A stretch of DNA of 64,000 bases. It comes from an uncultured Acidobacteriaceae bacterium (GTDB lineage Bacteria; Acidobacteriota; Terriglobia; Terriglobales; Acidobacteriaceae). The stretch lies in NCBI GenBank assembly GCA_963786075.1, contig CAWAYA010000006.1, positions 36,075 to 100,074 of the forward strand. Direction: 5' to 3'. Positions 7,868-56,946 of this stretch are shown one piece after another. Positions within the stretch are counted from its first letter, which is position 1. Each line of letters begins with the position of its first letter. The position numbers and the translations under genes are program-made. The notes below the pieces were generated by a model that saw only the letters and a program-made list of their open reading frames with translations, was not told the origin of the DNA and did no database searches.

Positions 7868-7909
7868 TAACAATCAACGAATAACAAACAACGACTAACG
7901 ACCAATCTC
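7868..7909 (+). repeat. tandem 14-nt repeat x3 abutting the pfkA ATG
   Basis: TAACAATCAACGAA / TAACAAACAACGAC / TAACGACCAATCTC, immediately followed by ATG 7910. Confidence 0.85.
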
Positions 7910-8974
7910 ATGTCAGACATTCGCTGCATCGGCATTAACACGGGAGGCGGGGATGCGCCCGGCCTCAACGCCGTCATCCGCGCCGCCACCAAAGCCGCCA
8001 TCGTTAAGTATGGATGGAAGGTCATCGGCATCCCCGATGGCTTCGACGGCCTCATCTGTCCGGAGAAATCGTTTGAACTCACACTCAAGGAAGTGAGCGG
8101 AATTCTGCCCCGCGGCGGAACCATTCTCGGCACCACCAACCGCGGCGATCCCTTTCATTACAAGACGGTCGAGAATGGCAAAGAAGTCTCGCGCGATATT
8201 TCCGGGCAGATCGTCGCCAACGCCGCCAAGCTCGGCATCGATGCGATCATCACCATCGGCGGCGATGGTTCGCAGAAGATCGGCTACGAACTTTTTCAGA
8301 AGGGACTGAAGATCGTCGGCGTGCCCAAGACTATCGACAACGATCTTTCGGCGACCGAGGTCACCTTTGGATTCGACACCGCGCTGCACACCGTCACCGA
8401 CGCCATCGACAAGATTCACACCACCGCCGAGTCACACCACCGCGTGATGGTGGTGGAAGTGATGGGCCGTGACTGCGGCTGGATCGCGCTCGAGGCCGGC
8501 ATCGCCGGAGGGGCGCACGTCATTCTCATCCCAGAAATCCCATTCACCATCGATCATGTCTGCCGCTACATCGCCGAACGGGAAAAAACCGGCAAGTACT
8601 TTACCATCGTGGTGGTGGCTGAAGGCGTGAAGCTGCCGCCCGAACTGAAAGAAAACCGCCGCGCCAGCCCTATCGGCAACCTGATCGGCAATGCCATCGC
8701 CCACGGCTCGAAAAAAGAAGTGCGCATCAGCGTGCTGGGGCATATCCAGCGCGGGGGCACGCCCTCGCCTTTCGATCGCATTCTGGCGACCCGCTTCGGA
8801 GTGGCCGCCGTTGACCTCATCGCTGCCGGGGGTTTCGGCATGATGGTCGCCCTGCACGGCGAGTCGGTCGTTTCCGTCGATGTTGCCCACGCCATCGGCC
8901 ATCTCAAGTCGGTAAATCCCAACGGAGAGCTCGTTCGCACTGCCCGCGCCATCGGCATCGGATTCGGGGACTGA
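7910..8974 (+). CDS. pfkA: 6-phosphofructokinase (probably ATP-dependent)
   Basis: GINTGGGDAPGLN, TIGGDGS, PKTIDND and MGRDCGW motifs of the PFK family. GGDGS (Gly, not Asp) suggests the ATP-dependent type. Confidence 0.9.
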   Translation: MSDIRCIGINTGGGDAPGLNAVIRAATKAAIVKYGWKVIGIPDGFDGLICPEKSFELTLKEVSGILPRGGTILGTTNRGDPFHYKTVENGKEVSRDISGQIVANAAKLGIDAIITIGGDGSQKIGYELFQKGLKIVGVPKTIDNDLSATEVTFGFDTALHTVTDAIDKIHTTAESHHRVMVVEVMGRDCGWIALEAGIAGGAHVILIPEIPFTIDHVCRYIAEREKTGKYFTIVVVAEGVKLPPELKENRRASPIGNLIGNAIAHGSKKEVRISVLGHIQRGGTPSPFDRILATRFGVAAVDLIAAGGFGMMVALHGESVVSVDVAHAIGHLKSVNPNGELVRTARAIGIGFGD

Positions 8975-9068
8975 GGTGCCTGCGCGTCGCGCTTGCAATG
9001 CGTCTTCAGCCCTTCCGTTTTTCGAAGTCTTCGCGAGTCCGTTAGTATTCTCCGTGAGGTGGTAAGCC

Positions 9069-9839
9069 ATGAGCCCCAGCGAGAACGGGCGTCTTGTAAT
9101 TCTTAGCGGACCGTCGTGTGTAGGTAAGACTCCACTCTACAAGGCGCTGGGCAAGTTCTATCCCGAACTGCACAGACAGTTTCACAAACTTGTGCTTTTT
9201 AATAGTCGTGCTCCGCGGCCCGGGGAACGCGATGGAGTGGACTATCACTTTCGCACGCGGGCTCAAGTGGAAGCGTTGCGCACGAATGATCGCTATGCCG
9301 TTCTGGAAGTACGCAATGACCTGCAGGCGCTGGACGTTCAGGAACTCGACTCCCTACTTCAGCGTGGCCATGTTTTTTTCGAGGGGAATCCGTTCGTGGG
9401 CCAGGCTCTGCAGAGTCACTCCCGCCTTGCGAACGCGAATCGGCTGAGCATTTTCATTTCGCCGCTTTCGAGGGATGAGATCGTTTACCTGAAAGCGTCC
9501 GAGCGCAACCTGTCGCTTCAGGATTTCCTCACAGACGTCATGCGGCGTAAGCTGCTGCGGCGGACGCGCCGCCAAAAAGGCGAACTTTCGGCCGCGGACT
9601 TGGAAGACATTGAAAAACGCGCCTCCAGCGCGTACCGCGAATTGCAAGAGGCGTGGCGTTTCCAGTTTGTGATCCCGAATCACGACGGCGAGGATAGTGA
9701 CAACTGGGAAGCGTTTTACTACCTGATTGGCGATGCTCGCAAAACCTTGGAAGCCTTCGCGGCCCTGCTCAAAGGTGAAGTTGCACCCGGCGTCGAGCAA
9801 TGGAAAGAGGATCTTTTGCCGTCAACGCACAAGAGTTAA
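9069..9839 (+). CDS. guanylate kinase-like P-loop protein (divergent, elongated)
   Basis: LSGPSCVGKT P-loop and SRAPRPGERDGVDYHF block as in guanylate kinases. TTR is NSR, the YGT block is not evident, and the length is 256 aa. Confidence 0.6.
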   Translation: MSPSENGRLVILSGPSCVGKTPLYKALGKFYPELHRQFHKLVLFNSRAPRPGERDGVDYHFRTRAQVEALRTNDRYAVLEVRNDLQALDVQELDSLLQRGHVFFEGNPFVGQALQSHSRLANANRLSIFISPLSRDEIVYLKASERNLSLQDFLTDVMRRKLLRRTRRQKGELSAADLEDIEKRASSAYRELQEAWRFQFVIPNHDGEDSDNWEAFYYLIGDARKTLEAFAALLKGEVAPGVEQWKEDLLPSTHKS

Positions 9840-9874
9840 CACGAAAGACTCTTTGCTCGCAGCCTCGGTCTTCT

Positions 9875-9892
9875 CTGTGATCTTGATCACAG
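9875..9892. promoter_or_regulatory. candidate operator palindrome upstream of the CDF transporter
   Basis: CTGTGATC-TT-GATCACAG, a perfect 8-bp inverted repeat. Further half-site-like GGATCACG (9901-9908) and TGTGACC (9911-9917) lie before ATG 9918. Confidence 0.4.
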
Positions 9893-9917
9893 TCAACGTG
9901 GGATCACGCATGTGACC

Positions 9918-10919
9918 ATGCCCCAAGAGGTCCGTCGGCTCGAGGAGCGCATGTCGGGTACGATCGCCGGTTTGTCCAGTCCGTCTGCGCTACAGCGCGA
10001 CCGAGAGGAACTGCGCGTCGCCCGCCTTGCCATGCGCTTGTCCCTGGTTGTGGGCGTGATGATGCTGGTGGGCAAGAGCGTTGCCTACTTCATGACGGGC
10101 TCAGCTGCCATCCTTTCCGACTTCGCCGAATCTGTCGTACATGTCGTGGCCGTCGCGTTTGCCGTGTTCAGCCTGCGGCTGAGCACAAAGCCCGCTGCGC
10201 CCAACTTTCTCTACGGCTATGAACGCATCACATTCTTTTCCGCGGGCTTTGAAGGCGCAATGATCGTTCTGGCCGCGCTGTGGATTCTGGTGGCCACAAT
10301 CGAGAAATGGCTGGCCGGGTTGAAGTTGGAGCATCTGGGTTCCGGCACGCTGCTTCTGCTTGGCGCCGGCTTCCTTAACGCGGGGCTGGGATGGTACCTG
10401 CTCCGGATCGGAAAGCGCAGCCACTCGCTCATCCTCGAAGCCGACGGCAAACACGTGCTCACGGACAGCTTGACCAGCTTTGGGGTAGTGGCTGGACTTG
10501 GCCTGGTGATGCTGACGGGCTGGAAGCCGTTTGACCCGCTGATCGCGATCGCGGTTGCTGTAAACATTCTCTGGTCGGGTGGGCGTTTGGCGTGGCGGTC
10601 AGCGGTTGGCCTGCTCGACTACTCCGACCCGGAAACTGGTAAGCAGATTCGCGAGAAGCTGGACGCCATTTGCAGCGAACTTGGAGTAACTTACCACGGC
10701 GTACGCTTCCGCACCACCGGCTACCGGCAGATCATTGAAATCCATCTGCTGTTTCCCCAAGCGACTCCGGTTGGGAAAGCTCACAGTTTGGCGACCGCGA
10801 TCGAGGAGCGACTGCCTGAAGAGTTAGGCCGGCGCGCCGAGGTGATCACTCACCTGGAATCGCTCGAAGACCATGCCGATGTGCATTCCCACGAACACTA
10901 CACTGGGCGACCGGAGTAA
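9918..10919 (+). CDS. cation diffusion facilitator (CDF) family metal efflux transporter
   Basis: Six hydrophobic segments. ILSDFAESVVH and HVLTDSLTS metal-site-like motifs. Cytoplasmic C-domain ending in His-rich HADVHSHEH. GTG 9912 is an alternative start. Confidence 0.85.
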   Translation: MPQEVRRLEERMSGTIAGLSSPSALQRDREELRVARLAMRLSLVVGVMMLVGKSVAYFMTGSAAILSDFAESVVHVVAVAFAVFSLRLSTKPAAPNFLYGYERITFFSAGFEGAMIVLAALWILVATIEKWLAGLKLEHLGSGTLLLLGAGFLNAGLGWYLLRIGKRSHSLILEADGKHVLTDSLTSFGVVAGLGLVMLTGWKPFDPLIAIAVAVNILWSGGRLAWRSAVGLLDYSDPETGKQIREKLDAICSELGVTYHGVRFRTTGYRQIIEIHLLFPQATPVGKAHSLATAIEERLPEELGRRAEVITHLESLEDHADVHSHEHYTGRPE

Positions 10920-10949
10920 GCAGGGACTTTTCAACCAGAGTCAGGGCCG

Positions 10950-11561
10950 CTAATCCTTCATCATGGCATCAATCAGCGCGTAGAGTTGGCTGGCGTCCTT
11001 CATCTCCACGTAGGGCCTTTCCGGATGGCGGCTGCTGACCACATACACGGTGGGCGTGTGTTCGAGCTTGATCGCTCTGCCCAAATCACGGTCGGCGTTC
11101 ACCTCGGCGGCGAACTTGCCTTGCGGATCGATCACGAAAGGCAATTCTACTTTGTGTTCGCTGGCGAACTTTTCAGCATAGCCGCGCAAGTTCTGCGGAT
11201 TGATCTCGAACTGATTCGCGAAAATATAGTCGCGAAATTCGTTGCCCAGCTCTTTCGAATTTTCATCGAAATAGCGCGCAATCACGGCGGCGTCGTAAGA
11301 CCAGTTGTGCATGGGCAAGGGAAAGTCATGGCGAATCAGCGGAATCTTGTACGTCCTGGAAGCCTGCTCAAGAATAGGCGACACGCGGCGGCACTGCGGG
11401 CACTGCAGATCCTCAAACACCACGATAGCCACCTGCGCGCCCTTGGGCGGACGCAACACTGGGTTCACCGGCTCATTCGCCGCCGCGCACAAACTGGCAG
11501 CTAGCACTAACACCAATAGCGAGAGAAGGAGGGAATGATTTTTGGACATGTTTGTCATCAC
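10950..11561 (-). CDS. DsbA-family thiol:disulfide oxidoreductase (secreted)
   Basis: Signal peptide LLLSLLVLVLAASLCAAA. Thioredoxin-fold CPQC active site in FEDLQCPQCRR. Confidence 0.8.
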   Translation of the reverse strand: MMTNMSKNHSLLLSLLVLVLAASLCAAANEPVNPVLRPPKGAQVAIVVFEDLQCPQCRRVSPILEQASRTYKIPLIRHDFPLPMHNWSYDAAVIARYFDENSKELGNEFRDYIFANQFEINPQNLRGYAEKFASEHKVELPFVIDPQGKFAAEVNADRDLGRAIKLEHTPTVYVVSSRHPERPYVEMKDASQLYALIDAMMKD

Positions 11562-11570
11562 GGCCTGCTT

Positions 11571-12056
11571 TTATGGTAACCGATGCGGCGGCGTGATGTC
11601 AGGATGCCGCCTTTGAGTCTCGCCAAAGTATGCGCGAATGTTTGGGCGCAGGAGGTAAATCAGCAACGCTCCTGCAATGGAGAGGCCAACGCCGCCACGC
11701 AGTAAGTCTCCTCTGAGGCAATTGACCAGATCTCCCAAAACCTGAGTGGCGACAATCGCTATGCATAATCTCCATCCCCAGTGCCGGCGGCGAAGCCAGC
11801 CCACTCCAGCCAGCGCCAGGACCGCGGCCAGAACCGGGAATGCAATCCCGACCAGCTTGCCAAAAGGCGCAAGCTGCTGCCAGCCGCGCGGATTGAGTGC
11901 CCAGACTCGGTCAAGAACTGTTCCTCGCCAAATCAAAGTCACCCCGGCGAGAGAAGCCATCACGGAGCCAAAGAATAGAAACGCGCCGATAGCCGCGAAT
12001 AACAGGGGTCTTGCCCGCACGGCCCCAGTATGGACAGGGTGAAAGTGATTCTCCAT
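11571..12056 (-). CDS. hypothetical membrane protein (4 hydrophobic segments)
   Basis: ORF 9 nt upstream of the DsbA-like gene on the same strand. Hydrophobic helices (LLFAAIGAFLFFGSVMASLAGV, LVGIAFPVLAAVLALAGVGW, ..). No family recognised. Confidence 0.55.
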   Translation of the reverse strand: MENHFHPVHTGAVRARPLLFAAIGAFLFFGSVMASLAGVTLIWRGTVLDRVWALNPRGWQQLAPFGKLVGIAFPVLAAVLALAGVGWLRRRHWGWRLCIAIVATQVLGDLVNCLRGDLLRGGVGLSIAGALLIYLLRPNIRAYFGETQRRHPDITPPHRLP

Positions 12057-12252
12057 TTGCCGACTATAAAACAGAACAACGTCGCATCGGTTCGAAAGCC
12101 ATGTGACTCAAGCGGCGAACCTGTCTTCCGGCAAAGCTTTCCTTACCGAGAACCTACAGTCAACGCGCTATAGTAGAAGCTTAATGCTCGCGTCGGTTTG
12201 CTGGAGTTAACTGGGTGAAGCTAACTAATTGGAAGCAGACCTCGTAAAAAAG

Positions 12253-13308
12253 ATGGTGAAACTCTCTTCTCGATTGCATCTTTATCGGAGCTCCCTGCTC
12301 TTCGTCGTAGCTGTCTTGCTGCTTGGGGTTTCCGCTTGCAGCCGTAGGGGCCAGCGGGTGCTGGAAGTCAACTACGTATCGGTTGCTGAGGCCACGCTGC
12401 GCGACCGGGTGGCCCCCGTCTATAACCACGTGGGAACCGTGAAGAACGGCGAGCGGGTGGAGGTTTTGGAGCACGAAAAGCGCTTTTCCCGGGTGCGCAC
12501 GACGAGCGGCGCCGAAGGTTGGATCGAGCAACGCTACCTGGTAGATCAGCAGACCTACAACGCTCTGCAGAAACTCACGCAAGAAAACCTTAACGATCCA
12601 GTGCAATCTCCCGGTGTGCTGCGGAATGAAACGAATTTGCACATTACCCCCTCTCGCGAGGCCGAGCATCTGTACCAGCTTCCATCCGGCGCGAGAGTCT
12701 CCGTGCTGAAACGCGCTACAGCGGAGAAGCAACTGGGATCGGTAGCCGAGCCCGCCAGAGTTGAGGGCAGATCTTCCGGTGGAAGGTCATCTTCCGGCCC
12801 CGTGTTAGAGGACTGGTGGCTGGTGCGCGATGCCGACAACCGCGTGGGGTGGGTGCTGGCCCGAATGGTGGACCTCGACGTCCCGCTCGACATCGCACAA
12901 TATGCCGAGGGCCAGCGCATCGTCGCATTCTTTGCGCTGAATCAGGTGCTGGATAGCGGAAAGGAGGGCACCGGCAAGAATGTCTCACAGTATTTGTGCG
13001 TCCTCACCGAACCACACGACGGCCTGCCCTACGATTACGATCAGATTCGCGTTTTCACCTGGAACGTGAAAAAGCACCGCTACGAAACCGCCTACCGCGA
13101 ACACGGCCTGAACGGCGTGCTGCCGGTAACCGTGACCAGCGAGAACTTCGATAAGGAAGGCGTGCTGCCGGTTTTCATTCTGCGAGTGAAAGACGACAGC
13201 GGGAACGTCGACGAGCGCAAATACAAATTGAATACGCCCATTGTGCGCAGAGTGCTGGCTCCGGGCGAGCAGAAGCAAGAACCGCGGCGCGCGAAGCATA
13301 GGAGCTAG
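12253..13308 (+). CDS. SH3-domain lipoprotein
   Basis: ATG 12253. LLLGVSAC lipobox. Two bacterial SH3-like segments (GERVEVLEHEKRFSRVRTTSGAEGWIEQRYL; WWLVRDADNRVGWVLARMV). Confidence 0.7.
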   Translation: MVKLSSRLHLYRSSLLFVVAVLLLGVSACSRRGQRVLEVNYVSVAEATLRDRVAPVYNHVGTVKNGERVEVLEHEKRFSRVRTTSGAEGWIEQRYLVDQQTYNALQKLTQENLNDPVQSPGVLRNETNLHITPSREAEHLYQLPSGARVSVLKRATAEKQLGSVAEPARVEGRSSGGRSSSGPVLEDWWLVRDADNRVGWVLARMVDLDVPLDIAQYAEGQRIVAFFALNQVLDSGKEGTGKNVSQYLCVLTEPHDGLPYDYDQIRVFTWNVKKHRYETAYREHGLNGVLPVTVTSENFDKEGVLPVFILRVKDDSGNVDERKYKLNTPIVRRVLAPGEQKQEPRRAKHRS

Positions 13309-13320
13309 TGGGCAAGCCGC

Positions 13321-20339: not shown

Positions 20340-20576
20340 GATGCCTCCTAAAATCTAACCGGTAACGCCCACGCCGGGGATTGTACACAACAGCCGGGGT
20401 GATGGGAGAAAGAACAACGGCAGAAGCCTTCACGCAGTGAAAGAAAACCGGTTTCCACAGATTCTCGGTTGAAAAGCGCGAGGGGACGCCGTATGGTACT
20501 CGCAGCTACCTGCCAGGCGGCACAGCCTCGGGAAACCGCGGCGGCGAAGAGGCAGGCTAACCCCCCGTGTTCCTGA

Positions 20577-20618
20577 TGCGGGAAGACCAGTGCGGGAAGA
20601 TCAGTGCTGGAAGACCGC
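20577..20618 (+). repeat. tandem 14-nt repeat x3 in the hfq upstream region
   Basis: TGCGGGAAGACCAG / TGCGGGAAGATCAG / TGCTGGAAGACCGC, ending 87 nt before ATG 20705. Confidence 0.85.
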
Positions 20619-20704
20619 GAGGGACATGCTGTTGCTATGAACTTGCCCGGGAGACTGCGGACCGGGCAGGTGTTGGAGTTCAAAAGAATTTAAGGAGATC
20701 GGCT

Positions 20705-21043
20705 ATGGAAAGCAGCAAGCCGGCGCAGAACATCCAGGATTCCTTCCTGAACACGGCCCGCAAGGAGCGCTTGAACATCACCATCTACCTGCTGAGCGGA
20801 GTGAAGTTGACGGGCCGAATTCGTTCCTTTGACAAATATTCCGTGGTGCTGGAGGCCAGCGGGCAAGAACAATTGATCTTCAAGCACGCCATCTCGACCG
20901 TGGTGATGGGCCGAACGGGGTCGCATGTGGCGCACCTGGCGCATCCCGAGGCGAAGGCCGCGGGCGCGCCCGGAGCGGCGGCATCCTCATCAGCGGGGCC
21001 GACGGCGGTTCCAGCGGCGAGCGCCTCGGGCACCGAAGGGTAG
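20705..21043 (+). CDS. hfq: RNA chaperone Hfq with Ala/Pro-rich C-terminal tail
   Basis: AAGGAG upstream. [51 protein letters not shown] is the canonical Sm1/Sm2 core. Confidence 0.9.
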
Positions 21044-25476: not shown

Positions 25477-26016
25477 ATGGCTTCCGTTGCCAGCACGTAC
25501 TCCCGGGCATTCGCAGATGTCGTCCTGAGCAAGCATCTCGACGCCGATCGTTCGATTGCGGAATTACGCACGATCGCCAGCCTGCTCGACGAAAGTTCGG
25601 TGCTGCGGCGAGTGTGGGAGAATCCAGCAATTCCCGCTGACCAGAAGCGGCGTGTGCTGGACGTAATCGCCAAGCGTGACGGCATTTCAACCCAGGTGAG
25701 GAATCTGGTCGCGGTGCTGATCGATCATCGGAGAACGCATTTTCTGGATCCCATCATCTTGCAGCTGGCGAAGGAACTCGATGCGCGCCTGGGATTCGCC
25801 GAGGCCGAGATCACCAGCGCTCGCGCTCTTGGCGATGCGGAGAAGCGCGAGTTCGAGGCTCAGGTTGGCAAGTTGACCGGCAAAAAAGTCCGGGCTCAAT
25901 ACGGGCAGGACGCTTCTCTTCTGGGAGGCGCGGTGCTCCGCATCGGCAGTACGATCTACGACGGTTCGGTGAAGGGGCAACTGGAGAGGATTCGGGAAGA
26001 AATAAGCGGCACTTAG
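25477..26016 (+). CDS. atpH: F0F1 ATP synthase subunit delta
   Basis: YSRAFADVV.. N-terminus, ..GGAVLRIGSTIYDGSVKGQLERI C-terminal OSCP signature, and position between b and alpha. Confidence 0.85.
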   Translation: MASVASTYSRAFADVVLSKHLDADRSIAELRTIASLLDESSVLRRVWENPAIPADQKRRVLDVIAKRDGISTQVRNLVAVLIDHRRTHFLDPIILQLAKELDARLGFAEAEITSARALGDAEKREFEAQVGKLTGKKVRAQYGQDASLLGGAVLRIGSTIYDGSVKGQLERIREEISGT

Positions 26017-26070
26017 CAATTGGCAGTCAGCAATTGGACAATTGCTAACTGCCAAGTGCTAAATGCTGAC
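26015..26070 (+). repeat. 4 x 14-nt array forming a long imperfect hairpin (atpH-atpA spacer)
   Basis: AGCAATTGGCAGTC / AGCAATTGGACAAT / TGCTAACTGCCAAG / TGCTAAATGCTGAC. Arm 26015-26037 and the reverse complement of arm 26038-26060 agree at 20 of 23 positions. The array starts inside the atpH TAG. Confidence 0.85.
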
Positions 26071-27663: not shown

Positions 27664-27704
27664 AAGACTCGAGACGCGGGACTCTGGGCTCGGGACTCGA
27701 ACCA
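27664..27704 (+). repeat. about 3 x 14-nt degenerate array abutting the atpG ATG
   Basis: AAGACTCGAGACG / CGGGACTCTGGGCT / CGGGACTCGAACCA, immediately followed by ATG 27705. Confidence 0.75.
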
Positions 27705-30267
<2,563 letters not shown>

Positions 30268-30310
30268 AAAAGTCAGTGGCCGGTTGTCGGTGTTCAGTCG
30301 AAGAGCTGAC

Positions 30311-30340
30311 TGAGAACTGAGAACTGAGAACTGAGAACTG
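30311..30340 (+). repeat. heptamer array (TGAGAAC) x4 + TG abutting the atpC ATG
   Basis: TGAGAAC at 30311, 30318, 30325 and 30332, then TG. The last TGA (30339-30341) overlaps ATG 30341 as TGATG. Confidence 0.95.
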
Positions 30341-30754
30341 ATGTCTGATACTTTCCAACTCGAGATCGTCACGCCGGAAAAGAAAGTCGTCGACACTACT
30401 GCGGCGGAAGTTCAGATTCCCGGCAAGAACGGATATCTGGGCATCCTGCCGGGCCATGCGCCGCTCATTACCGAACTGGCTGTGGGTGAAGTCACGTTCC
30501 GCGCTGCGGGTGACGAGCAGCGCCTTGCGGTCGCGTGGGGATTCGCAGAAGTTTTGCCCGACAAAGTGACGATTCTGGCCGAGACCGCAGAGCGCCCCGC
30601 CGAGATCGACGTGGAACGCGCGCGCAAAGCCAAAGCTCGCGCCGAGGGACGGCTGTCGAGTGGCGATCCGAATGTTGACGTCGAGAGGTCTCTGAACGCG
30701 TTGCACAGGGCAGAGGCACGGCTGGAAGTGGCCGAAGGGAAAAGCCACTTCTAA
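30341..30754 (+). CDS. atpC: F0F1 ATP synthase subunit epsilon
   Basis: FQLEIVTPEKKVVD..VQIPGKNGYLGILPGHAPLIT.L..G is the typical epsilon beta-sandwich. C-terminal helical hairpin. Last gene of the block. Confidence 0.9.
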   Translation: MSDTFQLEIVTPEKKVVDTTAAEVQIPGKNGYLGILPGHAPLITELAVGEVTFRAAGDEQRLAVAWGFAEVLPDKVTILAETAERPAEIDVERARKAKARAEGRLSSGDPNVDVERSLNALHRAEARLEVAEGKSHF

Positions 30755-31945
<1,191 letters not shown>

Positions 31946-35603: not shown

Positions 35604-35659
35604 GATGGCTTCAAGAAGATGGCGTGGAGAAGATGGCTTGAAAAAGATGGCTTCAAACG
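35604..35659 (+). repeat. tandem 14-nt repeat x4 in the divergent spacer between the EPS synthase and GT-C genes
   Basis: GATGGCTTCAAGAA / GATGGCGTGGAGAA / GATGGCTTGAAAAA / GATGGCTTCAAACG, followed by TATATT (35663-35668) and GTG 35675. Confidence 0.9.
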
Positions 35660-42876: not shown

Positions 42877-42920
42877 CGGTAGGGAAGGCGCGCCCGCGGC
42901 GGTTGTGGTGATGTCCACAC

Positions 42921-43060
42921 TTTGCAAGTTTAGTCTCCGGGTTTCAAGGTCGCAAGGTTTCAAGGTCGCAGGTTTCAAGGTTTCAAAGTTGCAAAGGCCA
43001 GTGCGACGTGGGATCCTGCAACCTTGAAACCATGAAACGTTGAAACCTTGAAACTTTGCG
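42921..43060. repeat. ~140-nt composite inverted repeat built from GGTTTCAA / TTGAAACC words, directly 3' of serS
   Basis: GGTTTCAA at 42939, 42956, 42971 and 42979. Complementary TTGAAAC at 43024, 43040 and 43048 (ATGAAAC at 43032). The right arm ends at the base before the serS stop (TCA 43061-43063). Confidence 0.85.
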
Positions 43061-47706: not shown

Positions 47707-47741
47707 CGAGAACTGAGAACTGGGAAGTGAGAACTGGAGTT
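47707..47741 (+). repeat. heptamer array, TGAGAAC-type x5 (same unit as 30311-30340)
   Basis: CGAGAAC / TGAGAAC / TGGGAAG / TGAGAAC / TGGAGTT, ending 2 nt before the stop (CTA 47744-47746) of the convergent gene. The 15-mer GAGAACTGAGAACTG is identical to the atpD-atpC array. Confidence 0.85.
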
Positions 47742-50621: not shown

Positions 50622-50674
50622 GACATTTCCCTCGCAGACAGGATACGTCCTCGACGGCGTTCATGGCGATTCCA

Positions 50675-51085: not shown

Positions 51086-51187
51086 TGTGGATATTCTCCC
51101 GCAGTTCCGCGAGAGGGGGGAACGAATCTTTCGGTCGGCATCCGTCCAGCCAATACAACGCCGAACACTAGCGAGGATATCAGCCGG

Positions 51188-51640
51188 CTACGTCCCGGTA
51201 ATCTTCACCCTAAGTTCTTCCGGCAGGCGTTCGCGAATTTCCTGCGGCAGCCGGTCGTGCACCCGCCGCGCCCCTTGCTTGGCCGCATCCAGCACGGTCA
51301 CGGGCGCGGGAGTCGCTACCGCCACTACCAGCCAGATCAGCGCCGACAAGGCAAAACCAGCCAGCGCCGCAATCTCCAGCCAGAAAGCATGCCGCGGAAC
51401 GAAGTGGCGAATCACGCCAAAGGTCAACAGGAAAACTCCGCCCGAAACCGAGGCCAGCGCGATCAGCCCCACGTCAATCGTGCGGTGAATGCGCTGCCGC
51501 CCGCGGCAGTGTTCACATTCCGCAAAATGGCTCTCGTAGTCGCTCCCCATCTCCGGCGCCAGGCCGGAAATGTCATAGCGCCAGCCTGCCAGAATCTTCC
51601 CGACAATCGGATCAATGCACTGCTGACTCATAAGCAACAC
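51188..51640 (-). CDS. membrane protein with N-terminal HxxxCxxC zinc-finger-like motif (anti-sigma zf-HC2-like)
   Basis: HFAECEHCRGR followed by two TM helices. GTG 51640 or ATG 51631 start. Confidence 0.5.
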   Translation of the reverse strand: MLLMSQQCIDPIVGKILAGWRYDISGLAPEMGSDYESHFAECEHCRGRQRIHRTIDVGLIALASVSGGVFLLTFGVIRHFVPRHAFWLEIAALAGFALSALIWLVVAVATPAPVTVLDAAKQGARRVHDRLPQEIRERLPEELRVKITGT

Positions 51641-51647
51641 AAAAGCC

Positions 51648-51698
51648 GGTCTTGGGTCTCAGGATCATAGGTCTTAGGATTTTGATTCTCCCAAGACC
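51648..51698. repeat. intergenic element: two ~15-nt direct repeats framed by a perfect 9-bp inverted repeat
   Basis: GGTCTTGGG (51648-51656) and CCCAAGACC (51690-51698). Inside them GGGTCTCAGGATCAT (51654-51668) and AGGTCTTAGGATTTT (51669-51683), 11/15 identical. Confidence 0.8.
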
Positions 51699-51719
51699 AT
51701 CACCCGACACCCTGTCCTT

Positions 51720-52544
51720 CTAAAGCTGGATCGGCGCTAAAACCTCGCCCTGCATCGCCACCAGTACCCGATTCTGGAACAACCCACCCCGCTCGGCCAG
51801 TGCCTTTTCCGCCTCTCGCCGCGCTATTTCCGGATGATTGTTCTGCTCAGATAGATGCGCCAGCACCACAAAGGCTGCACTGTTATCATAGTCATTAATG
51901 AAGAAATCCGCGAGTTTCTCGTTCGACAAGTGTCCCACGTTGCTCGCCACCCGCTGCTTCACTGCCCAGGGATAAGACCCGCCACGCAGCATCTCTACAT
52001 CATGATTCGATTCCATCACCAGAACGTCAGACCCGCGCAGGTGATCGCGCACATTAGCCGGTAAATAGCCCAGATCGGTCGCCACGCTCACCTTCGTGCC
52101 TTCCACCCGAAACGTGAACCCCACCGGATCGGCGGCGTCGTGGGGAATCGTAAAAGGCTTGACCTCAATATCGCCAACCTGAAAACGATGCCCCGACTCG
52201 AAGCGCTCTAGCCGCTCCAGTTGCAGCCGCTCGCCCTTCTCGTCACGCATGGCCCGCGACCACGCCGTGTGCGTGGCCCCCGTCATAAATATCGGGATGC
52301 GCAACTTCTTCGCCAAAGTTGCTAAACCATAAATGTGATCGGAATGTTCGTGAGTAATCAGAATCGCCGAAAGCGACTGCGGATCCTCGCCCAGCGACTT
52401 CATCCGCTTGAAAGTTTCCCGGCAGGAAATCCCGGCATCGACCAGAATCCGGGTGCGCGCGCTGGCCACAAACGCACAATTCCCCCGGCTCCCGCTCGCC
52501 AGCATCGAAACCGTCACACCCATCCCCGCAGCATACGCGCTCAT
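51720..52544 (-). CDS. MBL-fold metallo-hydrolase
   Basis: ILVDAG.., ILITHEHSDH (HxHxDH), later His/Asp ligands. About 270 aa, typical of YycJ/PhnP-like MBL hydrolases. Confidence 0.85.
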   Translation of the reverse strand: MSAYAAGMGVTVSMLASGSRGNCAFVASARTRILVDAGISCRETFKRMKSLGEDPQSLSAILITHEHSDHIYGLATLAKKLRIPIFMTGATHTAWSRAMRDEKGERLQLERLERFESGHRFQVGDIEVKPFTIPHDAADPVGFTFRVEGTKVSVATDLGYLPANVRDHLRGSDVLVMESNHDVEMLRGGSYPWAVKQRVASNVGHLSNEKLADFFINDYDNSAAFVVLAHLSEQNNHPEIARREAEKALAERGGLFQNRVLVAMQGEVLAPIQL

Positions 52545-52589
52545 CCTGTGGATTCGGGAGTAACTCTCTGGTTATCCGATACCTAAGGG

Positions 52590-52697
52590 CAGCGTCCAGT
52601 GTCCAATGATCAGCGTCCAGCAATCAGCGTCCAGCAATCAGTGGCCAGTCTCGGGTGCAGGTTTTTCTGATCATTGACCACCGATCACTGGCCACTG
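52590..52697. repeat. nine tandem CA-initial heptamers followed by a partially complementary inverted arm
   Basis: CAGCGTC CAGTGTC CAATGAT CAGCGTC CAGCAAT CAGCGTC CAGCAAT CAGTGGC CAGTCTC (52590-52652). Downstream, CTGATCATTG (52667-) and CTGGCCACTG (52688-52697) are the complements of CCAATGATCAG and CAGTGGCCAG. Confidence 0.85.
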
Positions 52698-52702
52698 CCT
52701 TT

Positions 52703-53086
52703 TCACTTTCCCGACCGCAGATTATCGATAACCCCACGCATCAGCGACCCACCATAAGCCCCGGCCACGCCCGGCAGCGCCGCCAGAAACGATCCATACA
52801 CCTGCGCCCGCGTAGGCTTCACCGTCAGAAAAACGTAGGCCACAAGTTCGCTCAAAGGGATAAATATTCCCACCACCACCACCCACCGCCAAGGCCACCG
52901 CGGCCGCAGCAGTCCGAGCAGCATACAAGCCATCAACACCAGCAGAGCCGTCAAGAGCAGGTCATCGATCATGACATCCGCCCAACCCGTGCCTATGCCC
53001 GCAAGCGCCGCCAGAAGATAGAACGGCGCATCGCTGCGGCCAGATGGAGAGACTGTCTCGGTAGTCATGGTCTGCGGGTTTCCCAC
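52703..53086 (-). CDS. hypothetical membrane protein
   Basis: 127-codon ORF (GTG 53086, alternative ATG 53068) with 4 hydrophobic segments. Confidence 0.5.
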   Translation of the reverse strand: MGNPQTMTTETVSPSGRSDAPFYLLAALAGIGTGWADVMIDDLLLTALLVLMACMLLGLLRPRWPWRWVVVVGIFIPLSELVAYVFLTVKPTRAQVYGSFLAALPGVAGAYGGSLMRGVIDNLRSGK

Positions 53087-53114
53087 TAGGTACTGGGTAC
53101 TAGGTACTCGTACT
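53087..53114. repeat. heptamer array TAGGTAC / TGGGTAC / TAGGTAC / TCGTACT
   Basis: Fills most of the 36-nt spacer between the hbd stop (53123) and the putative GTG 53086 of the next gene. Shares a 21-mer (20/21 identical) with 55787-55807. Confidence 0.85.
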
Positions 53115-53122
53115 CTGAATTC

Positions 53123-53971
53123 TCAATACTTGTAAAAGCCCCGCCCGCTCTTGCGTCCCAACCATCCCGCATCCACCATCTTGATCAGCAGCGGACAAGG
53201 CCGGTACTTCGGATCACCCAACCCATCCTGCAACACCCGCATAATGTCGAGGCAAACGTCGAGCCCAATAAAGTCAGCCAAAGTCAGAGGCCCCATGGGA
53301 TGCGCCATCCCTAGCTTGAATACCTCATCCACCGCCTCAGCCGTAGCCACGCCGTCCATCACCGCATACATAGCCTCGTTGAGCAAAGGCATCAGCACAC
53401 GGTTCGAAACAAATCCCGGCGCATCGTTCACCTCCACCGGAGTCTTCTCCAGCTTGACGGACAAATCCCGTACCGTGGCAAAAGTCTCCGCCGAAGTAGC
53501 TAGCCCGCGAATTACCTCCACCAGCTTCATCACCGGCACCGGATTAAAGAAGTGCATCCCAATCACTTTTTCGGGACGCTTGGTTAACGCGGCAAGCTTG
53601 GTAATGGAGATCGAAGAAGTATTCGAAGCCAGGATGACATCCGGCCGAGCCACCCGGTCCAGATCGCGAAAAATCTCCGTCTTGATCTCAATCTTCTCCG
53701 TAGCCGCTTCCACAATAAAGTCGCAATCAGCAAGCCTCGCGCGGTCGATCACGGGATCGATTCGCCGCAGCGCCGATTCTTTGTCGTCCTCAGAGATCTT
53801 GCCCTTCGCCACTTCGCGGTCAAGATTCCTGATGACGGTCTCGAGGCCGCGGTTCAGAAACCGCTGCTCCACGTCGCACAAGACGACCGAATAACCCGCG
53901 CCAGCAAATATCTGTGCAATGCCGCTGCCCATTGTGCCCGCACCAATCACTCCCACACGTTTCATTTCCAT
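53123..53971 (-). CDS. hbd: 3-hydroxybutyryl-CoA dehydrogenase
   Basis: [18 protein letters not shown] Rossmann motif. ..SNTSS.SIT.., ..GMHFFNP.., C-terminal ..GRK.G.GFY.Y. Confidence 0.9.
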
Positions 53972-54109
53972 AACGTTGCTCTAGCGAAAACGCTTGAGTC
54001 TATCACTACGTACGGGAGGTCCGGAATGGAACGCGCAGACACAAAATCCTCCTGCATCCAGGGTCTCCGGCAACTCTTCACGGCTGCAACCTCTTACGCA
54101 CCGTGGGTG

Positions 54110-54120
54110 TAAAATAGCGG
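54110..54120 (+). promoter_or_regulatory. candidate -10 box TAAAAT(AGCGG) upstream of pruA
   Basis: TAAAATAGCGG lies 29 nt before ATG 54149. The identical 11-mer occurs at 1668-1678, and TAAAATA occurs at 61586 before the tRNA. No convincing -35. Confidence 0.3.
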
Positions 54121-54148
54121 TTGCTTCGCAATATTTGAAAGGATCCCC

Positions 54149-55744
54149 ATGGCAACCCTAGAACTCCCCACCCGGCCGCCGCGCACATCGCCCCACCAGG
54201 GCGCCTTCATCAACGAGCCGTTTTTTGATTTCACAAAGGAAGACAACGCCCGCAAGATGCGCGCCGCCATCGAGCGAGTCCGCGGCCAGCTCGGCCGCGA
54301 GTACGACCTCATCATCGGAGGCCAGCGCCTCAAGACCACCGACAAGATCAAGTCCCTGAACCCCGCGAGGCCGTCGCAGGTAGTGGGAATCCATCAGAAG
54401 GCCGGCAAAGAGCACGTAGAGCCGGCCATGACCGCGGCGTTGAAAGCATTCGAGACCTGGAAGCGCACTCCCATTGAAGAGCGCGCCGCCCTGCTGTTCC
54501 GCACCGCCGACCTGCTGCGTGAACGCAAAATGGACCACATGGCCTGGCTCGTCTTCGAAGTCAGCAAAAACTGGGGCGAAGCCGACGCCGACATCTCCGA
54601 AGCGATCGACTTCTGCGAGTTCTACGCCCGAGAAGCCCTGCGCTTCGCCAAAGCCGAACCCCCGGTGCAGATGCCCGGCGAGCGCGACACGCTCGCCTAC
54701 ATCCCGCTAGGCGTAGGCGCGGTCATCCCGCCGTGGAATTTCCCCTGCGCCATCATGGCCGGCCTGGTGGTCGCCTCCATCGTCAGCGGCAACACCGTGA
54801 TTCTCAAGCCGTCGAGCGATTCTCCCACCATCGCCGCGAAATTCGTTGAACTGCTCGAAGAAGCCGGCATGCCCGAAGGCGTAGTGAATTTCTGCCCCGG
54901 CGCCGGAGCCAGCTTCGGCGATGCCGTAGTCGCGCATCCCAAAACGCGTTACATAGCCTTCACCGGATCTCGCGAAGTCGGCCTTCACATCAACAAAACC
55001 GCTGCCACGCAAGCCCCCGGTCAGCTCTGGATCAAACGCACCATCTTAGAAATGGGCGGCAAAGACGCCATCGTCGTTGACGCAGACGCTGACATCGATT
55101 CCGCGGTCGAAGGCGTTGCGCAAGCCGCATTCGGCTTCCAGGGCCAGAAGTGCTCCGCCTGCTCCCGCGCCATAGTCGATGAGCGCATCTACGACAAATT
55201 CCTCGAGCAACTCAAAACCCGCGTAGAAAAAATCACCGTCGGCGATCCCGCCGAAAACGCGAACATGGGAGCAGTCATCAACGAGGGCTCGATGAAGACC
55301 ATCCTCGCCTACATCGAGCAAGGCAAAAAAGATGGACGAGTCCTAACCGGCGGCAATCGCGCCACCGAAGCCGGAGAAGGTTATTTCATTCAGCCAACGG
55401 TAATCGCCGACATCCCGGCAAAGTCGAAACTCGAGCAGGAAGAAATCTTTGGCCCCGTGCTCGCCGTAATCAAAGCCCGCGGCTTCGACAACGCTTTAGA
55501 AATCGCCAACGACACCGAGTTTGGCCTGACCGGCGCCATCTACACCAAATCCCGCGACAAGATCGACCGCGCCAAAACCGATTTCTACGTCGGCAATCTC
55601 TACATCAACCGCAAATGCACCGGAGCCATGGTAGGCGCGCATCCCTTCGGTGGCTTCAACATGTCCGGCACCGATTCCAAATCCGGCGGCCCGGATTATT
55701 TGTACTTGTTCACGCAAGCAAAGTCAGTAGCAGAAAAAATCTAG
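54149..55744 (+). CDS. pruA: L-glutamate gamma-semialdehyde (1-pyrroline-5-carboxylate) dehydrogenase
   Basis: Aldehyde dehydrogenase fold (..PWNFP.., LEMGGKDA, GQKCSACSR catalytic Cys) with the PruA-type N-terminal extension and ~530 aa length. Confidence 0.85.
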   Translation: MATLELPTRPPRTSPHQGAFINEPFFDFTKEDNARKMRAAIERVRGQLGREYDLIIGGQRLKTTDKIKSLNPARPSQVVGIHQKAGKEHVEPAMTAALKAFETWKRTPIEERAALLFRTADLLRERKMDHMAWLVFEVSKNWGEADADISEAIDFCEFYAREALRFAKAEPPVQMPGERDTLAYIPLGVGAVIPPWNFPCAIMAGLVVASIVSGNTVILKPSSDSPTIAAKFVELLEEAGMPEGVVNFCPGAGASFGDAVVAHPKTRYIAFTGSREVGLHINKTAATQAPGQLWIKRTILEMGGKDAIVVDADADIDSAVEGVAQAAFGFQGQKCSACSRAIVDERIYDKFLEQLKTRVEKITVGDPAENANMGAVINEGSMKTILAYIEQGKKDGRVLTGGNRATEAGEGYFIQPTVIADIPAKSKLEQEEIFGPVLAVIKARGFDNALEIANDTEFGLTGAIYTKSRDKIDRAKTDFYVGNLYINRKCTGAMVGAHPFGGFNMSGTDSKSGGPDYLYLFTQAKSVAEKI

Positions 55745-55749
55745 AGAAT

Positions 55750-55807
55750 CAGTACCCGGTACCAGGTAAAACTCATCCCGTCCAGATACTGGGTACTAGG
55801 AACTCGT
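55750..55807. repeat. GGTAC-type heptamer clusters (CAGTACC CGGTACC AGGTAAA ... GATACTG GGTACTA GGAACTC)
   Basis: Convergent spacer pruA / aldo-keto reductase. The second cluster overlaps the reductase stop (CTA 55796-55798) and its last codons. Confidence 0.75.
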
Positions 55808-56833
55808 CTCCACCGGCGCCGGGTTCCTCTCCAAAAACTGATGCTGATGCCAATACGGATAAACCGGCGTCACGTCGCTAGCCTTATCCAACTTCGCAAC
55901 CTGCGCGGCAGACAAGTTCCATCCCGCCGCTCCCAGGTTCTGCCGCAACTGCTCCTCATTCCGCGCCCCAAAAATCACCGTCGAAATCGATGGCCGCTGC
56001 AGCAGCCAGTTTAGCGCCACCTGCGGCACGCTCTTTCCAGTCTCCGCGGCAACCGCATCCAGCGCATCCACCACTTTGTAAAGATGCTCATCCGAAACCT
56101 GCGGACCGAGATCGCCCGTCTTGTGCAGCCTGCTCTCGGCCGGCAAAGGCTGCCCCCGCCGGATCTTTCCCGTCAACCTTCCCCAGCCCAGCGGACTCCA
56201 CACCAGCGCCCCCACTCCCTGGTCCAAAGCCAGCGGCATCAATTCCCATTCATACTCCCGCCCAATCAGCGAGTAATAAACCTGATGGCCGGAGTAGCGC
56301 GCCCAGCCAAACTTATCCGCCACATCAAGCGACTTCATCAAATGCCATCCGGAAAAATTCGAGCACGCAATGTATCGAACCTTCCCGCTCACCACCAGTT
56401 GATTCAGCGTGCTCAGCACTTCCTCCACCGGAGTCAACGCGTCGAACCCATGCAGATGATAGATGTCGATGTAATCCGTCCCCAGCCGCCGCAAGCTGGC
56501 CTCGCAAGCCTTGATCAGGTGATAGCGCGACGACCCCAGATCGTTCGGCCCCGGTCCCATGCGGAACGTCGCCTTAGTCGAGATCAATACCGCATCGCGC
56601 CGTCCGGCAATCGCTTTCCCCAGAATTGTTTCCGAGAGCCCGTCCGAATAAACGTCCGCCGTATCGAAAAGGTTGACCCCCGCTTCGAGGCAAATGTCGA
56701 CCAGTCGAGTCGCCTCAGCCACGTCGCTCGCGCCCCAGGCGCGAAAAAATTCCGTTCCACCGCCAAACGTTCCCGTGCCATAACTCAAGGCGGGTACCTT
56801 CAATCCAGAGCGTCCCAACGTTCGAAATTCCAT
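55796..56833 (-). CDS. aldo/keto reductase
   Basis: ATG 56833 gives MEFRTLGRSGLKVPALSYGTGTFGG.., then ..DTADVY.., ..TK.., ..IDIYHLH.. AKR blocks. The track start 56908 (TTG) lies inside a repeat and is rejected. Confidence 0.9.
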   Translation of the reverse strand: MEFRTLGRSGLKVPALSYGTGTFGGGTEFFRAWGASDVAEATRLVDICLEAGVNLFDTADVYSDGLSETILGKAIAGRRDAVLISTKATFRMGPGPNDLGSSRYHLIKACEASLRRLGTDYIDIYHLHGFDALTPVEEVLSTLNQLVVSGKVRYIACSNFSGWHLMKSLDVADKFGWARYSGHQVYYSLIGREYEWELMPLALDQGVGALVWSPLGWGRLTGKIRRGQPLPAESRLHKTGDLGPQVSDEHLYKVVDALDAVAAETGKSVPQVALNWLLQRPSISTVIFGARNEEQLRQNLGAAGWNLSAAQVAKLDKASDVTPVYPYWHQHQFLERNPAPVETSS

Positions 56834-56897
56834 AGACACTAGATGCCGCGCGGAAAAGAACGATGCGCCGAAAGAGCAGTTCTCAAACTGCTTCATG

Positions 56898-56946
56898 GAG
56901 GAGCACAAATTCGAGGAGCACAGATTTGTCGAGAAGCACAGATCGG
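56898..56946. repeat. 3 degenerate direct repeats (15-18 nt) GAGGAGCACAnAT..
   Basis: GAGGAGCACAAATTC / GAGGAGCACAGATTTGTC / GAGAAGCACAGATCGG, 65-113 nt upstream (minus strand) of the aldo/keto reductase ATG. Confidence 0.8.

Follow-up and report, generated by a model that had tools for sequence, protein, structure and literature searches.

What keeps short tandem repeats with a unit of seven nucleotides (nt) in the spacers between housekeeping genes? The question is raised by a 64,000-nt stretch of DNA, hereafter the window, from an uncultured Acidobacteriaceae bacterium (contig CAWAYA010000006.1). An earlier note on its sequence had listed 13 arrays with units of 7 or 14 nt and had taken them for a family of non-coding heptameric simple sequence repeats (SSRs), which resembles the short tandemly repeated repetitive (STRR) sequences of cyanobacteria and resides in an acidobacterial host. 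This core reading holds. Between the genes of the ATP synthase (atp) operon, the arrays are paired with their own reverse complement and form hairpins, and the occupancy of these junctions is nearly universal in the clade despite a turnover of the repeated words. We tentatively regard the arrays as slippage-built intercistronic RNA hairpins, which link initiation on the downstream cistron to termination on the upstream cistron; this is a plausible reading, to which we assign somewhat less than an even chance.

Arrays were detected in the window using Tandem Repeats Finder (TRF) and compared with 200 segment-wise dinucleotide shuffles; genes were called with a rough codon model, according to which 84% of the window is coding. 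Approximately 10.2 kb of non-coding DNA contain 11 arrays with a period of 7 or 14 versus 0.20 +/- 0.44 in the shuffled sequences (maximum 2), and not one such array was found in approximately 54 kb of coding DNA, for which the shuffles predict 1.66. TRF arrays that do lie within coding DNA have periods that are multiples of 3. Inspection of the sequence revealed that all 13 positions named in the earlier note hold what had been described there and that, as claimed, no array lies within a gene body, the ones at 26015 and 55750 overlapping stop codons by a few bases. The period of 7 or 14 applies to most of the loci, but not to 42921-43060 (8/16 nt) and 56898 (15 nt). Five independent contigs deposited in ENA, NCBI and Logan carry identical sequences, and the arrays are therefore not assembly artefacts. 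The host, a peat bacterium, had also been guessed correctly, as the closest relatives are metagenome-assembled genomes (MAGs) of Candidatus Sulfotelmatobacter or of Acidobacteriaceae/Terriglobales; several relatives come from SPRUCE and palsa samples. All genes flanking the arrays of the window are housekeeping genes according to the gene table and Pfam. An Rfam scan of the whole window (E <= 1) yielded a single match, a tRNA, and none to the arrays or hairpins.

The excess of periods 7 and 14 in intergenic DNA, on which the proposal depends, extends beyond the window. The clade sample consists of the window and 80 relative loci around atpG (68-95% AtpG identity), which were fetched from Candidatus Sulfotelmatobacter and other Terriglobales and are referred to by L-numbers; the 81 loci comprise 1.46 Mb, and arrays with a TRF score >= 40 were counted. 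In 0.226 Mb of non-coding DNA, 154 period-7 and 80 period-14 arrays were found (234 in total) and every other period is represented by at most 13, while 1.24 Mb of coding DNA contain no period-7 and four period-14 arrays. Units of 7 or 14 nt, arranged head to tail and above chance, are thus present in the window as well as in the clade, which places them in the heptameric SSR class; as 7 cannot be divided by 3, they are excluded from coding DNA. It had further been proposed that the arrays present stop triplets in all three reading frames. This is true for ACTGAGA, GCTAAGA, AGCTAGA and TGATTGN, which have TGA, TAA or TAG inside; however, it is not a general property, since the common words CAACGAC, ACTCGGT and CCGAAGC do not fit. 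Arrays are called by TRF in 45% of the atp spacers, but only in 3% of the other co-directional, 8% of the divergent and 2% of the convergent spacers (3 of 135). Determination of the best self-match lag revealed that the non-atp spacers are only mildly enriched for 7/14 periodicity, with a lag of 7 or 14 in 22% of the co-directional, 45% of the divergent and 20% of the convergent spacers, compared to about 15% expected by chance and 6% in coding DNA. Arrays outside of the atp operon are mainly found among the closest relatives of the window. Taken as a whole, the arrays of this clade lie mainly in transcribed spacers between co-directional genes. Generic intrinsic terminators were rejected as an explanation, as the stems are long, imperfect and located inside operons, and as convergent spacers rarely carry arrays; canonical terminators are found elsewhere in the window, at approximately 19.42 kb and 57.0 kb.

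The architecture of the arrays is most apparent in the four atp spacers atpH-atpA, atpA-atpG, atpG-atpD and atpD-atpC, which were examined in about 75 species. They almost always begin with the upstream gene's stop codon, followed by three to five heptamers, a loop, three to nine heptamers of reverse-complement sequence, a short T-rich tail and the ATG of the downstream gene. The stop codon is often part of the first unit of the 5' array, as in TAGCTCTTAGCTTTTAGC. The best self-match lag was determined for 279 atp spacers with a length of 40 nt or more and equals 7 in 222 of them and 14 in 33; the mean match fraction amounts to 0.458 at lag 7 versus approximately 0.24 at other lags. Periodicity of 7/14 is thus shown by 91%, and about 95% of the atp spacers are both long and periodic, compared to the 3% (TRF) or 22% (lag) of other co-directional spacers. 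In 27 of the 32 spacers in which TRF called both arms, the words of the arms are reverse complements of each other within one mismatch, whereas a cross-spacer control yielded 23%. With a 5' array and its reverse-complement array at the two ends of the spacer, the whole spacer is therefore predicted to fold into one long imperfect hairpin, and the median fold z-scores of the atp spacers range from -3.7 to -4.5. The earlier note had ascribed such inverted arms to four loci; the arms are present, but they are not confined to these loci, the inverted pair being the norm for spacers within operons. The main stem begins 0-2 nt past the stop codon (in atpH-atpA, the stop codon is included), ends 3-12 nt before the start codon, covers approximately 90% of the spacer and bridges stop and start in 64-91% of the cases versus about 41% after shuffling. 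Stems have a median length of 32 bp and are interrupted mostly by 1x1 and 2x2 mismatches; a regular 7-nt spacing of helices within the stems was not seen, the spacings being broad (3-8 nt). The G/T versus A/C chirality of the arms is partly real: TRF-called arms are GT-rich and then AC-rich in a ratio of 28:1, and at the level of base pairs the orientation of U-A pairs is skewed (2080 vs 1494), while that of G-C pairs is balanced.

In the window, the atp operon is located at 24.2-30.8 kb and encodes the subunits b', b, δ, α, γ, β and ε; three of the previously listed arrays lie between its genes. The atpH-atpA hairpin (26014..26070, plus strand) has a folding energy of -37.5 kcal/mol and a z-score of -6.2, z-scores of window folds being relative to dinucleotide shuffles. 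Its 5' arm begins with the TAG stop codon (TAGCAATTGGCAGTCAGCAATTG), the complementary 3' arm reads CAATTGCTAACTGCCAAGTGCTA and is followed by AATGCTGAC units, and a TRF call at 26039 (14-mer, 2 copies) belongs to the same hairpin. The atpA-atpG array (27664..27704, plus strand) consists of degenerate GGGACTC-type heptamers, which adjoin the ATG of atpG and have a z-score of 0.01. As a repeat array, this locus stands in its orthologues, which have clean ACTCGGG/GAGTACC hairpins in L008, L009, L011, L053 and L063, but in the window the hairpin is decayed and the array is too degenerate for TRF. Directly 3' of the atpG stop codon, in the atpG-atpD spacer, three AGTACCC-type units (28787..28807, plus strand), which had been overlooked previously, represent the 5'-arm type only; full AGCTAGN hairpins occupy this spacer in most relatives. 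The atpD-atpC hairpin (30273..30341, plus strand; -29.2 kcal/mol, z -5.3, with the shuffle z listed at 30265) consists of a degenerate 5' arm, which is the remnant of a CAGTGNN array, and a 3' arm at 30309-30341, which is composed of 4.7 copies of ACTGAGA with 100% identity and adjoins the ATG of atpC. According to the gene table, two b-type subunits are encoded in the operon, and genes for a or c are absent directly upstream. The γ subunit (27705-28784, plus strand) has 359 amino acids including acidic stretches, and is longer than typical bacterial γ subunits.

Comparison of close relatives revealed how the arrays arise: they are made and remodelled by slippage of whole units. A strain which is 98.6% identical to the window over 6.2 kb differs from it by a single indel, an extra TGAGAAC unit (+7 nt) in front of atpC; one additional unit in the atpC array was recorded for L004/L008. 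The 14-mer in the hfq leader is present in one copy in L048, two copies in L007, three copies in the window and L009 and four copies in L008. Non-coding DNA of the window and its close relatives differs by 58 indels of 5 nt or more; the length of 23 of these is a multiple of 7, while 1 in 7 would be expected by chance. Copy numbers consequently differ between strains, at atpC as well as in the hfq leader. Extreme mutator activity was rejected, because three strains have the same sequence in the serS spacer. Differing copy numbers would also fit phase-variation (contingency) loci, at which the number of units would switch expression; however, the flanking genes have housekeeping functions (atp, pfk, serS, hfq, dehydrogenases), several independent assemblies contain identical arrays, and the host is a free-living soil bacterium, which makes this explanation hardly credible.

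The repeated words themselves change readily. The 234 arrays of the clade comprise 122 canonical words, the commonest of which are AACTGAG (31), AAGAGCT (22), AAGCTAG (20), AACGACC (15) and AAAAGCT (14), and the atp spacers of different species contain ACTGAGA, GCTGAGA, CCGAAGC, CACTGAC, CAACGAC, GAGGTCC and others. Even at 94-95% AtpG identity, the word preceding atpC is TGAGAAC in the window, GCTGAGA in L007 and CCGAAGC in L009. The 5' arm of the atpC hairpin of the window (GTCAGTGGCC..GTGTTCAGTC) and the CAGTGNN arm of L011/L012 are homologous, whereas the 3' arm contains ACTGACC in L011/L012 and a perfect ACTGAGA array in the window. As the 5' arms are homologous although the 3' words differ, the 3' arm must have changed its word and been homogenised, with the 5' arm lagging behind. 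Word turnover thus appears to occur in place, and covariation concerns whole words between families rather than single pairs within a family.

A second operon was analysed in 80 loci around the gene of a metallo-beta-lactamase (MBL)-fold hydrolase, which were retrieved from metagenomes. In the window, the orf127-MBL spacer contains a hairpin at 52597..52697 (minus strand; CAGTGGC/CAGTGAT.. / ..ACTGATT/GCTGGAC; TRF calls at 52590/52609/52669 with periods 7/14; -42.2 kcal/mol, z -3.0), which begins 8 nt past the stop codon and precedes a conserved leader of approximately 45 nt. In most relatives, a heptamer hairpin begins 3-8 nt past the stop codon of orf127 and shows word turnover; 85% of these spacers are periodic, with a median z of -2.8. 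The spacer between the 3-hydroxyacyl-CoA dehydrogenase (3HCDH) gene and orf127 is filled by a one-armed array of the GAGTACC/TAGTACC type (53087..53114, minus strand; TRF at 53085, 7-mer, 3.4 copies), and the arrays of the relatives are mostly one-armed as well and begin at the stop codon (TGATGATTGTTGATTG..., GAGTACC..., TGATTGN). A third hairpin (GGTCTTG.. / ..CAAGACC) is located at 51654..51712 (minus strand) between the MBL-fold gene and orf147; it has a folding energy of -35 kcal/mol and a z-score of -4.0 (listed at 51629), and TRF reports a 7-mer with 4.3 copies and 72% identity at 51648. In relatives that are 94-96% identical to the window, the MBL-orf147 spacer is only 6-7 nt long and has no hairpin. 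L119 and L134 have two complete GGTCTTA-type hairpins of approximately 82 nt each in tandem in this spacer; whole hairpins can therefore duplicate as units.

This clean presence or absence and the double hairpins are what one would expect of mobile cassettes such as miniature inverted-repeat transposable elements (MITEs) or REPINs, which are built from repetitive extragenic palindromic (REP) sequences and would insert into spacers as a whole, and the limited vocabulary common to spacers and genomes points in the same direction. However, loci with a common word have no conserved ends or loops, the word differs from spacer to spacer within a genome, and the homology of the atpC 5' arms of the window and L011 in the presence of different 3' words indicates evolution in place, so that the insertion of cassettes is very improbable. 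For orf127, an exact-protein look-up matched no record. The region upstream of the MBL-fold gene call (window 52470-52590, minus strand) is conserved at the nucleotide level (AGGTATCGGATAACCAGAGAGTTACTCCCGAATCCACAGG...) in relatives that are 82-96% identical, and the conserved N-terminus MLASGSRGNCAF suggests that the true start codon of the MBL-fold gene is the ATG at 52544 or a nearby GTG. The conserved leader of approximately 45 nt contains a palindrome.

Are the hairpins maintained by selection or are they a by-product of slippage? Neutral, self-propagating repeats would expand by slippage, perhaps linked to transcription, wherever the constraint of the reading frame is absent, intrastrand template switching would keep the arms complementary, and the highly transcribed atp operon would be a mutational hot spot; the hairpins would then be functionless. 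The dominance of unit-length indels, the unbalanced arm lengths and degenerate 5' arms, the patchy distribution of the MBL-orf147 hairpin and the absence of a bias between G.U- and A.C-type mismatches in the stems are in agreement with this. In addition, a change in the copy number of heptamers in Haemophilus influenzae requires transcription and the RNA hairpin itself (PMC12721329), and the polymerase-slippage hypothesis of Mrazek, in the form in which it is summarised in PMC4679880 and PMC4692102, likewise favours a neutral origin. However, this mechanism would not explain why the four atp spacers are occupied by nearly 100% in about 75 species despite a complete turnover of the words, while other spacers reach 3-22%, nor why the fold z-scores of these spacers are consistently as low as given above. 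Moreover, non-heptamer sequences can take the place of the arrays: in L020, L022, L034, L049, L063 and L075, an unrelated REP-like palindrome forms the hairpin in atp spacers. Neutral propagation is therefore possible, yet we consider it doubtful. The remodelling by slippage, the exclusion from coding DNA, the pairing of the arrays, the near-universal occupancy combined with word turnover and the replacement by REP-like palindromes argue that it is the fold, and not the repeated word, which is maintained at the atp junctions. The REP/REPIN-like palindrome (GTAGAGACGTAGCTTGCTACGTCTC ... GAGACGTAACAAGTTACGTCTCTAC) replaces heptamer hairpins in several atp spacers of the six genomes; L020 and L022 contain four copies each and the window none.

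The position of the hairpins relative to the translation signals suggests what such a fold may be required for. A Shine-Dalgarno (SD)-like 4-mer at -20..-4 of the start codon precedes 29% of all called genes (background 11%), but only 4% of the atpA, 3% of the atpG and 4% of the atpC starts, compared to 40% of the atpD starts. The genome does contain canonical SD sequences, among them GGAGG in front of an esterase gene at 30785 and AAGGAGA in front of hfq. The median distance from the end of A/C-rich arrays to the downstream start codon is 7 nt, and that from the upstream stop codon to the beginning of G/T-rich arrays is 5 nt. With the main stem running from 0-2 nt past the stop codon to 3-12 nt before the start codon, the atp spacers have a predicted structure over the downstream initiation region that is within reach of the ribosome terminating upstream, as demanded by translational coupling. 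The fold might thus be selected at the level of the mRNA as an intercistronic control element. In such a scenario, the hairpin would bury the initiation region of the downstream, mostly SD-less cistron, and the ribosome terminating on the upstream cistron would open it, because its footprint must melt the base of the stem, thereby coupling the translation of the two cistrons through the unfolding of RNA. This RNA-unfolding model has been reviewed (PMC12548453, whose references include studies on atpHA and uncH of Escherichia coli), and an experimental precedent for a heptameric SSR as functional arm of an mRNA hairpin comes from H. influenzae (PMC12721329). Where an A/C-rich array stands alone before a start codon, as upstream of pfk, it might act as an unstructured leader.

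Alternatively, the arrays could provide periodic sites for a single-strand nucleic-acid binding protein, for example ribosomal protein S1, a cold-shock protein (Csp) or a ring-shaped regulator, which would recognise one unit per 7 nt and thereby recruit or block ribosomes. Such a protein would fit the A/C-rich arrays that end shortly before SD-less starts, the RCTN-type core (ACTG, GCTA, GCTG, ACTC) common to many words and the exact TAACTGA repeats in front of atpC in L046, all the more as S1 or Csp has been proposed to bind TAACTGA repeats (MacGregor 2015, PMC4679880). It is difficult to reconcile with 122 canonical words in 234 arrays, of which CAACGAC and CCGAAGC lack the core, and with the predicted folds, in which the arrays are mostly base-paired; we consider it improbable.

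Several observations weigh against coupling by RNA unfolding. The sense strand folds better than the antisense strand in terms of minimum free energy (MFE), but the difference is significant in only three of the four atp spacers and is confounded by composition. Stems defined by Watson-Crick pairs contain 166 G.U-type and 178 A.C-type mismatches and hence no wobble signature; the lack of a bias neither supports nor excludes a role of the RNA. RNAalifold analysis of 11 atpA-atpG spacers of the ACTGAGA type found a compensatory change in only 1 of 22 consensus pairs. The MBL-orf147 hairpin is found in only about 12 of 75 relatives (~16%), and in the orf127-MBL spacer the conserved leader of approximately 45 nt separates the hairpin from the downstream start. 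The stop-to-start geometry may itself be trivial, because a hairpin growing in a minimal spacer necessarily touches both codons. Finally, coupling cannot be the sole role of the arrays, because of the orf127-MBL leader and because two arrays of the window lie between convergent genes.

Another reading is that the hairpins are REP-like elements of RNA processing or stability, i.e., substrates of RNase III or barriers to 3'-exonucleases, which would cleave or shield individual cistrons within polycistronic mRNAs and thereby set unequal levels of the subunits. The stems begin right past stop codons, even where no start codon is adjacent (orf127-MBL) and in convergent spacers, their length and mostly small internal mismatches are sufficient for RNase III, they share their niche with the REP-like palindromes of L020 and L022, and RNase III cuts the heptamer-armed hairpin in the 5' untranslated region (UTR) of hmw1A (PMC12721329). 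On the other hand, arrays are rare at 3' ends, being present in 3 of 135 convergent spacers, and canonical GC-rich terminators serve the gene ends of the window; processing as the main role seems unlikely to us. Coupling by a terminating ribosome remains the reading that we prefer for the atp junctions, with the reservation expressed at the outset. A more far-reaching claim would be that the hairpins, assembled and repeatedly renewed from slippage-prone heptamers, represent a previously unrecognised class of intercistronic control in Terriglobales, which replaces SD-led initiation in the atp operon and some other operons via the upstream-terminating ribosome or RNase III; we give this claim a modest chance at best. 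If true, it would for the first time assign a function to STRR-type heptamer repeats, and this for bacteria in general. Irrespective of the mechanism, the same four junctions of an essential operon, at which the hairpin is kept while the word changes in about 75 species, represent a natural experiment in which structural constraint can be told apart from constraint on the sequence, in an operon whose subunits have an unequal stoichiometry and whose repeats are linked to SD-less genes.

With respect to known repeats, the acidobacterial arrays belong with the heptameric SSRs and are not a new category. Heptamer repeats were first reported in cyanobacteria decades ago. The STRR heptamers of heterocystous cyanobacteria are likewise tandem, non-coding and often located inside operons, with several words per genome, and some of their words, such as STRR1 (CCCCAGT) and STRR3 (CAACAGT), share an ACTG core with the acidobacterial arrays. 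However, they occur in another phylum and have other words, while the arrays described here are short, with 3-9 units, and in most cases have a reverse-complement partner; given their Terriglobales host and their own word set, they are not STRR sequences in the strict sense. REP sequences and the related bacterial interspersed mosaic elements (BIMEs) and REPINs of Proteobacteria are also hairpin repeats just past stop codons in transcribed operon spacers. They have a genome-wide consensus and are spread by the REP-associated tyrosine transposase (RAYT), whereas the arms found here are tandem heptamers that apparently evolve in place, and a REP-type consensus palindrome common to the loci of the window was not found. 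The coupling structures of E. coli atpHA and uncH concern the same operon and junctions, and the structure around the downstream start is reportedly opened by upstream translation; in contrast to the spacer-filling hairpins built from repeats, they are unique sequences that involve coding RNA.

STRR sequences, the only analogue named in the earlier note, do not stand alone, since heptameric long simple sequence repeats (LSSRs), TAACTGA repeats, GGGAATC repeats and the hmw heptamers of H. influenzae have also been described. According to the summaries in PMC4679880 and PMC4692102, Mrazek, Guo and Shah (2007) found heptamers to be the most abundant LSSRs (5-11 nt) in many free-living bacteria and proposed slippage as their origin; these summaries describe neither an inverted-pair architecture nor a conservation in atp spacers. 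TAACTGA repeats are present in marine Beggiatoaceae, some Cyanobacteria and Bacteroidetes, with 169 direct sets and one inverted set (MacGregor 2015, PMC4679880). Like the arrays of this study, they are heptamers just 5' of start codons, which overlap the expected ribosome-binding site of SD-less genes, and ACTGAGA is one or two bases apart from their word; exact TAACTGA units were found in front of atpC in L046 only. The acidobacterial arrays are nevertheless not part of this network, which has one dominant direct word as opposed to more than 100 words in mostly inverted pairs. GGGAATC and GGGGA(C/T)T repeats of Xanthomonas and Nostoc are found at the same intergenic sites in related species and have inverted copies (PMC4692102), and heptamers near start codons have also been described in Nostoc. 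They resemble the arrays in that they are intergenic heptamers of variable length and sequence between the same genes, but they differ in their G-tracts, which form G-quadruplexes. In the 5'-UTR of H. influenzae hmw1A, (ATCTTTC)n forms one arm of a transcribed hairpin that controls expression and changes its copy number by whole units; RNase III cleaves this hairpin, and the copy number does not change unless the hairpin, its transcription and RNase III are all present (PMC12721329). This system concerns one virulence locus with at least 11 units, which pair with a non-repeat G-rich arm, and involves phase variation and a demonstrated RNase III cut, whereas the predicted acidobacterial hairpins occupy many housekeeping loci and have two repetitive arms. 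None of the known heptameric repeats except the hmw case has an established function. In the literature searched, in which Mrazek et al. (2007) is represented by summaries, no description was found of heptamer arrays in Acidobacteria, of hairpins in which inverted pairs systematically connect stop and start, or of the conservation of such hairpins at all atp junctions across an order-level clade. A G-quadruplex was rejected as the words have no G-runs, and a CRISPR-like array as there are no unique spacers.

The remaining arrays of the window are located next to the genes of phosphofructokinase, serS, dihydroorotate dehydrogenase (DHODH), aldehyde dehydrogenase and aldo-keto reductase and in the leader of hfq, in addition to the MBL-fold hydrolase and 3HCDH genes mentioned above. 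The pfk leader array (7868..7909, plus strand) is a direct, A/C-rich repeat with a 14-nt unit (7+7) in 2.3 copies (TRF), which adjoins the phosphofructokinase ATG at 7910 (Pfam PFK); it has no complementary arm and is unstructured (-1.2 kcal/mol, z +0.74). The array in the hfq 5' leader (20577..20618, plus strand) consists of 2.9 copies (TRF) of the 14-nt unit TGCGGGAAGACCAG in the apical part of a conserved hairpin. This leader is conserved in approximately 50 relatives (window 20540-20705, plus strand; 170 nt upstream of hfq in L007-L086), is arranged as ...GGCAGGTTGTCCCCCCGTGTTCCT-(variable apical hairpin)-AGGAACATGCTGTTG...TAAGGAGATCGGCTATG, includes a perfect SD sequence and is not matched by any Rfam family; it has the appearance of a structured leader that has not been described so far. 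In a divergent spacer, 3.8 copies (TRF) of the 14-nt unit GATGGCTTCAAGAA (35604..35659, plus strand) end 15 nt 5' of the GTG of a PMT_2 glycosyltransferase gene and differ from L012 by a 7-nt indel. The serS-orf139 hairpin (42951..43060, minus strand; -57.1 kcal/mol, z -6.05, listed at 42916) is built from 8/16-nt units (GTTTCAAG.. / ..CTTGAAAC), corresponds to a pair of TRF calls at 42940/43020 and begins 3 nt past the serS stop codon, with GGAG and a GTG start codon following it. Between the convergent genes for DHODH and a BNR protein, 4.1 copies of GAGAACT (47707..47741, plus strand; TRF at 47708) have a weak complementary 5' arm, which begins at a TAG. In the convergent spacer of the aldehyde dehydrogenase and aldo-keto reductase genes (55750..55805, plus strand), the GGTAC-type sequence reported previously is present, but amounts only to an inverted pair with a weak fold (z -1.65). 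The array upstream of the aldo-keto reductase (56898..56946, minus strand) is an outlier with its 15-nt unit GAGGAGCACAAATTC in approximately 2.5 copies (TRF); placement of the Pfam domain puts the start of the gene near 56803. For gene callers and assemblers, arrays at start and stop codons are to be expected in acidobacterial MAGs.

Apart from the heptamers, the window contains a few other repeats. A dispersed element of approximately 115 nt (57796-57920, minus strand) contains GCGAGCC..CGCGCGGCTCGCC and ends with ...CTCAGGATGACA or TCGGAATGACAA. It is also present in L100, L108, L126 and L130 and in many atp spacers (L018, L024, L025, L028, L034, L050, L069), its motif has 32 copies in 24 loci, and it resembles a MITE or a REP-like repeat belonging to this clade. 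A 51/102-nt tandem repeat at 4626-4872 (plus strand; 2-3.5 copies, 73-79% identity) lies inside the open reading frame (ORF) 3763-5073 and presumably encodes a repetitive protein segment. The single Rfam match is the tRNA gene at 61600-61673 (plus strand, 67.8 bits), and is followed by a CCG-rich array with periods of 3/9/18 at 61715-61779, which falls within the 3' portion of ORF 61702-63558 on the minus strand.

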